A stretch of DNA of 64,000 nt from an uncultured Methanosarcinaceae archaeon (lineage in GTDB: Archaea; Halobacteriota; Methanosarcinia; Methanosarcinales; Methanosarcinaceae), in NCBI GenBank assembly GCA_963833425.1, contig CAWHXP010000008.1, forward strand, positions 468,578 through 532,577, in the 5' to 3' direction. Below the pieces are notes generated by a model. That model ran no database searches. It saw nothing but the letters and a program-made list of their open reading frames with translations, and had not been told where the DNA came from. The translations under genes were made by a program, and so were the position numbers. Shown piece after piece: positions 2,793 through 10,045 of the stretch (position 1 is the first letter of the stretch; each line of letters opens with the position of its first letter).

Positions 2793-3314
2793 TTACAGCG
2801 TAGAATTAATGTCACTGGAAGATACATTCCTTAACCGAGCTACTCCATCAATTTTTCTGATAGCTTCTACGATCGATTTTGGAACCAAGTGTTCCCACTG
2901 TTCTCCTGCAACCATTCGTCTCCGAATTTCTGTACCTGAGTAGCTTTCCCGAATGTAAAGAGGAGATACCTTTACGCAAAAACTGGCTTCTCTAAAAAGT
3001 TGAATAACGAGAGGATTATTTGAGTATACAACTTCAAATTTTGGCGTACGTGATGCTACGTGATGAACCCATATAGAATTATATCGGACGTCTTCGATAG
3101 GAAGAATGTAATGGCGGACAGGTAAGTTCTCAAGCACATTGTGAAGCATCAGCACCCGCTCTCCTGCCGTAAAAGGATCAGTGGCCTCATGACTTTTCTG
3201 AGCGCTTCCTATACCTATAACTAGTTCATCAACCTCTTCAGATATCCGCGAAATTACCGCATGGTGACCAAAATGATATGGCTGGAAACGTCCAATGTAG
3301 AAAGCTCGTACCAT
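2793..3314 (-). CDS. nadM: Nicotinamide-nucleotide adenylyltransferase
   Basis: GRFQPYHFGH (HxGH) and SGTEIRRRM motifs; 173 aa. Confidence 0.95.
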   Translation of the reverse strand: MVRAFYIGRFQPYHFGHHAVISRISEEVDELVIGIGSAQKSHEATDPFTAGERVLMLHNVLENLPVRHYILPIEDVRYNSIWVHHVASRTPKFEVVYSNNPLVIQLFREASFCVKVSPLYIRESYSGTEIRRRMVAGEQWEHLVPKSIVEAIRKIDGVARLRNVSSSDINSTL

Positions 3315-3381: not shown

Positions 3382-3779
3382 TTAAATCATTTCATTACAA
3401 ATTCTTGTTCCAAAAAAAATTTTTTTACAAACTTTCAAGAAATTTTCAGCATTGTTCTTGCGCTCCACTTCAATAAGTATTCTTATAAGTTCGAAATCTG
3501 GCTTCGGATCTTCCATGATTTTCATAAAATCGTGGACCAGATCGAAGTACTTTTCTCCAGTCTTGGTTCGTATAAAGATTGAATTCCATCCTTCAGGTGC
3601 CCAACAGAACCTCCAGAAATAAGCTCCTGTAGTTTAAAAACTTAGATCGTTTGGATCACGAATTTCTCCGCCTTCTTTGCAGTAACAGTCCTCATGGGGG
3701 CACACGGCTTCGCATCCACCGCAAGCTGTGCACACGTATGTTCAATGACTTCTGTAATTTTTATGGCAGTTGGTTGCAT
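3382..3779 (-). pseudogene. fpoF: F420H2 dehydrogenase subunit F remnant with a large internal deletion and frameshifts
   Basis: Mixed-frame translation gives KITEVIEH..C.ACGGCEAVCP..EIRDPNDLS joined to ISGGSVG.PEGWNSIFIRTKTGEKYFDLVHDFMKIMEDPKPDFELIRILIEVERKNNAENFLKVCKK. These match the N- and C-termini of Methanosarcina FpoF as I recall them, and the locus is directly downstream of mer. Confidence 0.85.
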
Positions 3780-3868: not shown

Positions 3869-4867
<999 letters not shown>

Positions 4868-8911: not shown

Positions 8912-10045
8912 GAGAATTTCGATAACCTCCATGCTCTTGAGCATGGTTGACTTTAAATTTGCAAATATTTATGTATATTCATGAAAACTCTTACTGATTT
9001 TGCTCTTAAAGAAGAGTATAAACGTCTTGAATCCGTTGGAGATAAGCTTGCTGAAATTGCTTCCTTAATTGATTGGAAAGCGTTTCGTATTATTCTTTAG
9101 TCTATGTATATTAACAAAGCCGTTTCAGGAGGGATACCTGAAACTGATGTCATTGTGATGTTCAAAATGCTTGTTTTACAACAATGGCACGTGCTCTCTG
9201 ATTTTGAACTTGAGAAACAGTGTATAGATCGAATTTCTTTTAGGAAATTCCTTGGATTTCCGGAATACATACCTGACAGTACTACTGTATGGCTATTTAG
9301 GGAGAGAATTATCGAGAATTTCAAAGAAAATATGGGAAAAGTTGCAAAGCCAACTTGATGCTCTGGATTTACAGATAAAGCAAGGAATGATTCAGGATGC
9401 TACTTTTATCCATTCAGATCCAGGACATGCGAAAGCAGAGAGATGAGGCAAAAACAAGAAGAAGCAGAGACGGAACATGGACAAAAAAGGGAGGTAAGTC
9501 TCATTTTGGATATAAGCTTCATAATATAATAGACAGAGATTATGAGCTAATCAGAAGATTCAAAACAACAACTGCGTCAGTACATGATTCGTATGTAGAT
9601 GTGACAGAGGAAAATGAAGTGGTTTATAGGGACAGAGGATACTTTGAGCAAAAACGAAAGGGTATAATGCAACAATGAAAAGAGCAGTCAAAGGACATAC
9701 GCTGGGAATAAAGGATATATTAAGAAATAAGAGAATTAGCTCAAAAAGAGTCAAAGGGGAAAGAGGTTGTTCAGTAACTAAAGAAATTTTCAAAGCAGGA
9801 AGAGTTTTTGTTACTACTGTTAAAAGAGTAAATCTAAAAATGTTGTGTACGGCTTTTTGTTATAATCTCCATCAATTGAGGACATTGAAAATAAAAAAAG
9901 TATATTGAAGATAGCGGAAGCTATCTTTAAAATCAAAGAATTGAGAATAAAGTAAAGCCAAAAAGAGGAATTAAATAGAGAAATTGAGGGGAAGATCTGA
10001 GAAATTCCTGCTAAGAAATAAAATCCGAAGTTTATCAAAATCCTC
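8912..10045 (+). mobile_element. IS5-family insertion sequence with frameshifted DDE transposase (~8981-9908)
   Basis: Imperfect TIRs (gagaatttcgataacctc / gaagtttatcaaaatcctc) flanked by TA. Transposase fragments FKMLVLQQW..DRISFRKFLG, IQDATFI, GKSHFGYKLH and DRGY lie in shifting frames. Confidence 0.9.

Follow-up and report, generated by a model that had tools for sequence, protein, structure and literature searches.

Introduction

According to two studies on Methanosarcina barkeri, growth on acetate requires only the hydrogenases Vht and Ech and growth on H2/CO2 requires Frh, Vht and Ech, while Fpo provides an alternative route for the F420H2 from methyl oxidation in methylotrophy (bioRxiv 334656, 335794). 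In this H2 cycling Frh and Ech make H2, Vht recaptures it and HdrDE closes the chain, with no Rnf taking part. A different arrangement is described in a report on Methanothrix thermoacetophila, which keeps the Fpo body, possesses neither a functional FpoF nor hydrogenases and uses acetate (PMC10470525). Methanosarcina without pyl genes have been published as well, with a raised TAG stop use of 13.5 % (Shalvarjian et al., PNAS 2025; PMC12626013), and Stordalen Methanosarcinales are reported without methylamine genes (PMC10805028).

The window analysed here is a whole stretch of 64,000 nucleotides from an uncultured Methanosarcinaceae archaeon (assembly GCA_963833425.1, contig CAWHXP010000008.1, positions 468,578 to 532,577 of the forward strand). 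G, C and L numbers denote genomes, contigs of this genome and loci, respectively. This genome (G000) is 80 % complete, about 20 % of it being unassembled. The FpoF reference is the 346-aa protein of Methanosarcina hadiensis locus L011, which scores 648 bits on model NF040616 (cut-off 475). Intact mer-fpoF-nadM loci were found in the genus, in line with the first-pass annotation of the window, which placed fpoF beside mer.

The fpoF remnant between mer and nadM

The features of the locus are as follows.

2793..3314, minus strand: nadM, nicotinamide-nucleotide adenylyltransferase, intact, 173 aa (TIGR01527 above cut-off)
3382..3621, minus strand: fpoF remnant, 3' piece, codons ~270-346 (alignments and profiles)
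3621..3622, minus strand: fpoF deletion junction (DNA alignment; crossed by independent contigs)
3622..3769, minus strand: fpoF remnant, 5' piece, codons 1-48, with the first CxxCxxCxxxCP motif
3869..4855, minus strand: mer, F420-dependent methylene-H4MPT reductase, intact, 328 aa (TIGR03555 above cut-off)

The gap between mer and nadM measures 557 bp in the window versus about 1,180-1,250 bp in those Methanosarcina whose fpoF is intact. Both pieces occupy the place that FpoF (NF040616 / PRK09326) has in Methanosarcina, nadM being by synteny its conserved downstream neighbour. Compared with the reference FpoF, window 3741-3637 (minus strand) matches residues 13-44 (59 %, E 4e-12) and window 3600-3385 (minus strand) matches residues 275-346 (61 %, E 6e-29), the latter in frame and followed by a stop codon at 3384-3382. 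The two FpoF models are the best profile match for both pieces. NF040616 gives E 1.5e-7 (31 bits) on the 5' piece and E 1.1e-21 (77 bits) on the 3' piece, far under the cut-off of a full-length protein, whereas the FrhB model TIGR03289 finds no match on the 5' piece and reaches E 0.0096 (15 bits) on the 3' piece. The fragments were correctly ascribed to FpoF rather than to FrhB.

A single deletion of ~650 bp was located by DNA alignment, with the junction at 3621/3622 and not at about 3630, where it had been put before. About 220 of the 346 codons (~49-269) are gone, among them the second Fe-S motif and the FrhB-like flavin/F420 domain, and residues 1-48 and 270-346 are fused beside an intact mer, which bears out the internal deletion first read from the letters. 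Unlike the FpoF of Methanosarcina, the window copy has no start codon, the ancestral TTG having become CTG at 3769-3767 with a decayed ribosome-binding site; the ancestral gene did not start at the ATG of 3779. A TAA at 3636-3634 precedes the junction, and four or five 1-bp indels are present. Judged from its sequence, the remnant in the mer-nadM gap is an fpoF pseudogene and not a working gene.

The junction was checked on assembled contigs. Those of all four DNA runs (four studies, about 92-97 % alike) cross it without a joint, so the deletion is real and an assembly artefact is ruled out. The extra frameshifts of the first-pass annotation stand in part: 1-bp indels exist, but a base at 3667 is present in all four contigs and missing from the window, so that at least one of them may be an assembly error or strain-specific. 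In this assembly 29 of the 156 genes tested are broken, some of them essential, including leuS and PCNA. Frameshift patches in essential genes (PCNA, leuS, hdrDE) lie at C2:50000-58300, C7:297000-311000 and C6:88900-90900. Such local errors mean that reads should back any pseudogene call made for a single gene of this genome.

A whole-genome search revealed no intact fpoF outside the window. The other matches are FrhB on C3 and one paralogue of 344 aa on C18, downstream of glutamate-synthase-like genes, and a second copy is thereby ruled out. Elsewhere in the window, two short ORFs at 9104-9678 look like a split IS transposase, near-identical copies of which lie at C3:348173-348978 and C3:366625-367187. 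At 278-1163 a surface protein gene is split into two overlapping ORFs; its product is presumably pectin-lyase-like (right-handed beta-helix).

Decay of fpoF within one clade

The five loci nearest to the Mer of the window (L001-L005, 85-87 %) all carry a broken fpoF and form one clade with the window (support 1.0, Mer+NadM tree). Its six genomes (this genome, G019, G055, G064, G065 and G067) are all MAGs, 73-92 % complete with two at 92 %, and no cultured representative is known to exist; for the named members the record titles give bog, fen and soil as origin. The fpoF lesions differ in each of the six loci: L001 and L005 have other deletions, and L002-L004 up to eight in-frame stops plus frameshifts. 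Since no lesion is common to all, decay probably began after the clade had started splitting. Pairwise dN/dS is 0.26-1.27 for the remnants (14 pairs) and 0.03-0.09 for intact fpoF (32 of 36 pairs, the other four being saturated); mer, at 0.12-0.25 within the clade, is still under purifying selection.

FpoF is full-length in 47 of the 59 genus genomes, in two others it is interrupted once or falls into an assembly gap, and ten are without it, namely the six clade members and G009, G020, G056 and G063. In the sister genome G056 only fpoF 255-345 is left, mtaB is frameshifted and pylS contains a stop. The sister genome G020 has an frh operon without frhD, no fpo beside crtI, and full methyltransferase sets (sister-genome loci: L274, L275, L276).

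The former fpo site

FpoD is missing from the same ten genomes. Four further incomplete MAGs are without FpoD and have fpoF, which probably reflects assembly gaps. Among the 39 high-quality genus genomes FpoD is found in 36; the exceptions, G019, G064 and G009, all are without an intact fpoF. In this genome none of the 13 Fpo membrane and connector subunits and no remnant of them was detected by sensitive tblastn and blastn: FpoA, C, J, K and O gave no match, and the FpoB, D, H, I, L, M and N queries matched Ech paralogues only (25-38 %).

A crtI-like/cofGH cluster flanks fpoA in five of five reference genomes. In this genome it lies mid-contig at C3:360917 beside frhADGB (C3:354493-358081), and the distal flank, the gene that comes after fpoO in G065, follows collinearly after frhADGB. 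With both flanks on C3 and frhADGB between them, the fpo site is assembled and empty of fpo, and the integrity of fpoA-O, which the first-pass annotation wanted checked, comes down to the absence of the operon.

Scars were found in three relatives. In G019 and G067 a frameshifted fpoA and fpoB codons 1-47 abut frhB; in G065 frhA abuts a broken fpoN, followed by fpoO. The two scar ends bracket ~8.5 kb of an intact fpo operon, in whose place a segment of ~4.8 kb with frh is found. The frh cassette is inverted in G064 and this genome, with no fpo remnant, and G055 is without the locus. FrhA of the clade is monophyletic (0.98) and of the ordinary Methanosarcina type; a foreign or fre-type origin of the cassette was rejected, as clade FrhA groups with G006 (0.87) and the cassette has frhD. 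Read most simply, the Fpo body was replaced once, in an ancestor, and the head decayed afterwards. The different fpoF breaks per locus together with the dN/dS values likewise make it likely that the head decayed after the body was lost. The single event is a reconstruction, since the scar ends come from different genomes, two cassettes are inverted and the locus of G055 is missing.

The dead fpoF beside an intact mer had suggested a headless, ferredoxin-fed Fpo as in Methanothrix. FpoF is indeed inactive here, but intact fpoA-N genes are not there: neither this genome nor its five relatives contain a body, the locus bears scars, and the idea has practically no chance of being right. The likeness to Methanothrix thermoacetophila (PMC10470525) consists in the loss of a functional FpoF and in acetate use, which for the clade is deduced from genes; otherwise the clade is its mirror image, for Methanothrix keeps the Fpo body without hydrogenases, whereas in the clade the body has disappeared while Frh, Vht and Ech persist. 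A Methanothrix-type Fpo would also entail ferredoxin:heterodisulfide activity without hydrogenases, whose genes this genome does have. It is highly improbable, too, that the fpo operon was relocated and resides in the unassembled ~20 % of the genome. The completeness of 80 %, the gaps that swallowed cdh and most of mtr, and the four other incomplete MAGs that keep fpoF without FpoD could be cited for it, but none of the six clade genomes has the operon, although two reach 92 % completeness, broken remnants of fpoA, B and N persist at the native site, and fpoF evolves near-neutrally.

A second lineage, G009 (L032 / L103, L211; 99 % complete), stands far from the clade in both trees. Its fpoF has an 852-bp deletion, fpoA is cut, FpoD, fpoA-O, MtaB and MtmB are lost, and pylS and MttB are kept. 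This Fpo loss is separate from that of the clade.

Hydrogenases, acetate genes and the C1 branch

This genome encodes echA-F on C9, one vhtGACD operon on C6 and frhADGB on C3, so that Ech, Vht and Frh, the hydrogenases of the Type I (H2-cycling) Methanosarcina, are all intact. RnfD was found in none of the five clade genomes tested (M. acetivorans control positive), which likewise agrees with Type I. The hydrogenase and rnf checks thus fit the rewired energy conservation and obligate H2 cycling that had been proposed for the lineage. FmdA, Ftr, two Mch, Mtd, Mer, Mcr and an intact pta are present as well. Within the clade dN/dS is 0.06-0.09 for Frh A, G and B, mostly 0-0.08 for Ech (EchF 0.20) and 0.07 for AckA; Mcr is among the more constrained genes (0.0-0.09), pta stands at 0.22, and constraint on Mer, Mtd and Fmd is no more than average (0.14-0.25; median of 156 genes 0.15).

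CdhC occurs in four of the six clade genomes, and ackA is intact in both that are 92 % complete. In this assembly ackA has one TGA and two frameshifts, hdrDE is frameshifted, cdhA-E and MtrH were not found, and one contig begins inside mtrE. Read literally, the damaged ackA and the missing cdhA-E would make this species a strict hydrogenotroph with a genuinely inactive ackA and a genuinely missing cdh operon. This is very unlikely. The neighbours of cdh in G064, including the proteasome beta subunit and a beta-CASP nuclease, are missing here too, and the loss together with essential neighbours marks an assembly gap; PCNA and primase beside ackA are frameshifted as well, whereas pta is intact; and RNA and DNA contigs 90-99 % alike have neither of the two ackA frameshifts (this concerns the frameshifts, not the TGA). 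Two metatranscriptomes contain RNA contigs over pta-ackA of close relatives (90-99 % alike). Strict hydrogenotrophy from the broken ackA and the missing cdh and mtr was therefore set aside as a product of assembly defects.

The C1 branch is less uniform. The sole full-length mtd found is broken in G019 (three stops), G055 (one stop) and G067 (frameshift), so that some clade members may live on acetate only, provided that no second copy lies unassembled. The damage to these relocated copies (L198, L262, L201) hints at a shift towards living on acetate alone. At the native site, five clade genomes carry mtd as a strongly degraded pseudogene. A mch-fmd-mtd-ftr cluster is found at L196 2346-13301 (G064), L205, L201 and L267 (this genome, C7:54414-63124), and mch is doubled in only four of the 59 genomes, all of them clade members. 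Mch and Mtd have long stem branches in the trees; horizontal re-acquisition was rejected, because the extra copies fall as within-clade duplicates (outgroups from the genus only).

One alternative makes the clade an acetate-only specialist converging on the Methanothrix niche, with Ack/Pta, CODH/ACS, Ech and Vht for energy and with Frh and the C1 branch kept solely to supply reductant for biosynthesis. The broken mtd of three of the six genomes and the five native-site pseudogenes point that way, as do CdhC in four of six and the high depth of pta-ackA in two RNA libraries (contig-level depth). Yet mtd, mch, ftr and fmd are intact in this genome, G064 and G065, where they are partly duplicated and clustered, and Frh is strongly constrained although it is dispensable on acetate in M. 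barkeri. For the clade as a whole this alternative is unlikely; it may hold for G019, G055 and G067 alone.

Methylotrophy and pyrrolysine

The methyltransferase check asked for by the first-pass annotation brought a loss to light: pyl and methylamine methyltransferase genes were not found in this genome, and MtaB is a stump (C3:66466-67010). pylS is absent from all six clade genomes, while 37 of the 39 high-quality genus genomes have it, the two exceptions being clade members. MtmB was found in none of the six and MttB in none of the three clade genomes tested. MtaB is intact in one of six (G019), frameshifted in G065 and missing in three; the MtaA family is intact in G019, broken in G065 and missing in three of the five tested. 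G019 thus retains an intact mtaABC. TAG ends 118 of the 1,066 long ORFs here, a share inflated by error-truncated ORFs, versus 2 of 128, a small sample, in pyl-bearing genomes, and ARAGORN listed no CTA tRNA, a weak sign in an 80 % assembly. In these respects the clade does not look like Type I Methanosarcina, which have Fpo as second branch, methanol and methylamine methyltransferases and pyrrolysine.

The Mcr tree places G020 and G063 (77-81 % complete) as sisters to the clade (1.0), and a mer locus was found in neither. FpoD is absent from both, yet they have mtmB, pylS and mtaB in several copies. Losing Fpo thus need not entail losing methylotrophy; as the mtaABC of G019 also indicates, the two are not strictly tied.

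The absence of pyl genes and the raised TAG stop use are shared with the Methanosarcina of Shalvarjian et al., whose text, in the part available (PMC12626013), does not mention Fpo, fpoF or frh and whose three genomes possibly overlap the clade. A search of openly accessible main texts turned up no publication on the loss of Fpo or on frh at the fpo site; Fig. S2B and Table S3 of the PNAS supplement may bear on novelty.

A proposed route to an Fpo-free methanogen

The fpoF remnant is probably best understood as a decaying orphan input subunit in a lineage whose Fpo body was deleted, with frh at the site, and which leads an H2-linked life on acetate and H2/CO2. In one ancestral event, a ~4.8-kb frh cassette would have taken the place of fpoB48-fpoN~205, and FpoF, left without its docking partner, would have decayed separately in each descendant. 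Fpo may have been dispensable because neither acetate (Ech to H2 to Vht) nor H2/CO2 (Frh supplying F420H2) should need membrane F420H2 oxidation, while methyl disproportionation, which does need it, was meanwhile being lost. The missing cdh and mtr and the frameshifted ackA and hdrDE of this genome would be assembly defects.

F420 would then be linked to the membrane chain through H2 only, by way of Frh, Vht and HdrDE. On acetate, electrons would run from CODH/ACS via ferredoxin, Ech, H2, Vht and methanophenazine to HdrDE; with CO2, Ech and Frh would give ferredoxin and F420H2 to Fmd, Mtd and Mer. The use of F420H2 by Mer in the CO2 route would explain why mer is intact beside a dead fpoF. With Frh, Ech, Vht and HdrDE and neither Fpo nor Rnf, we infer that all catabolic electrons must pass via H2. 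Judging by gene content, the clade likely makes methane from acetate and H2/CO2 and depends on H2 cycling for it; its use of H2/CO2 is uncertain, mtd being broken in three genomes and Mer, Mtd and Fmd under only average constraint. In M. barkeri (bioRxiv 334656, 335794) H2 cycling is alike and Fpo stays as a second branch; in the clade Fpo is naturally deleted and frh sits in its stead, with pyl and the majority of the methyltransferases lost as well. The chances are about even for the longer history, in which a one-event swap of Fpo for frh and obligate H2 cycling were followed by the shedding of methylotrophy and the 22nd amino acid, the clade now splits into acetate-plus-H2/CO2 and acetate-only members, and G009 is an independent parallel.

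As a rule Methanosarcina are credited with the use of every methanogenic substrate, and nearly the whole genus has Fpo (36 of 39 high-quality genomes). Wetland methane models would misplace a clade that lacks Fpo, pyrrolysine and the majority of methyltransferases. Its scars show the order in which a respiratory complex was dismantled, and it offers a natural test of the H2-cycling model. Fpo of Type I Methanosarcina has been proposed to work backwards during direct interspecies electron transfer (PMC6315138); the clade should be unable to use this route, and its members would, if that is true, be natural knock-outs for the need of Fpo in electron uptake by direct interspecies transfer.
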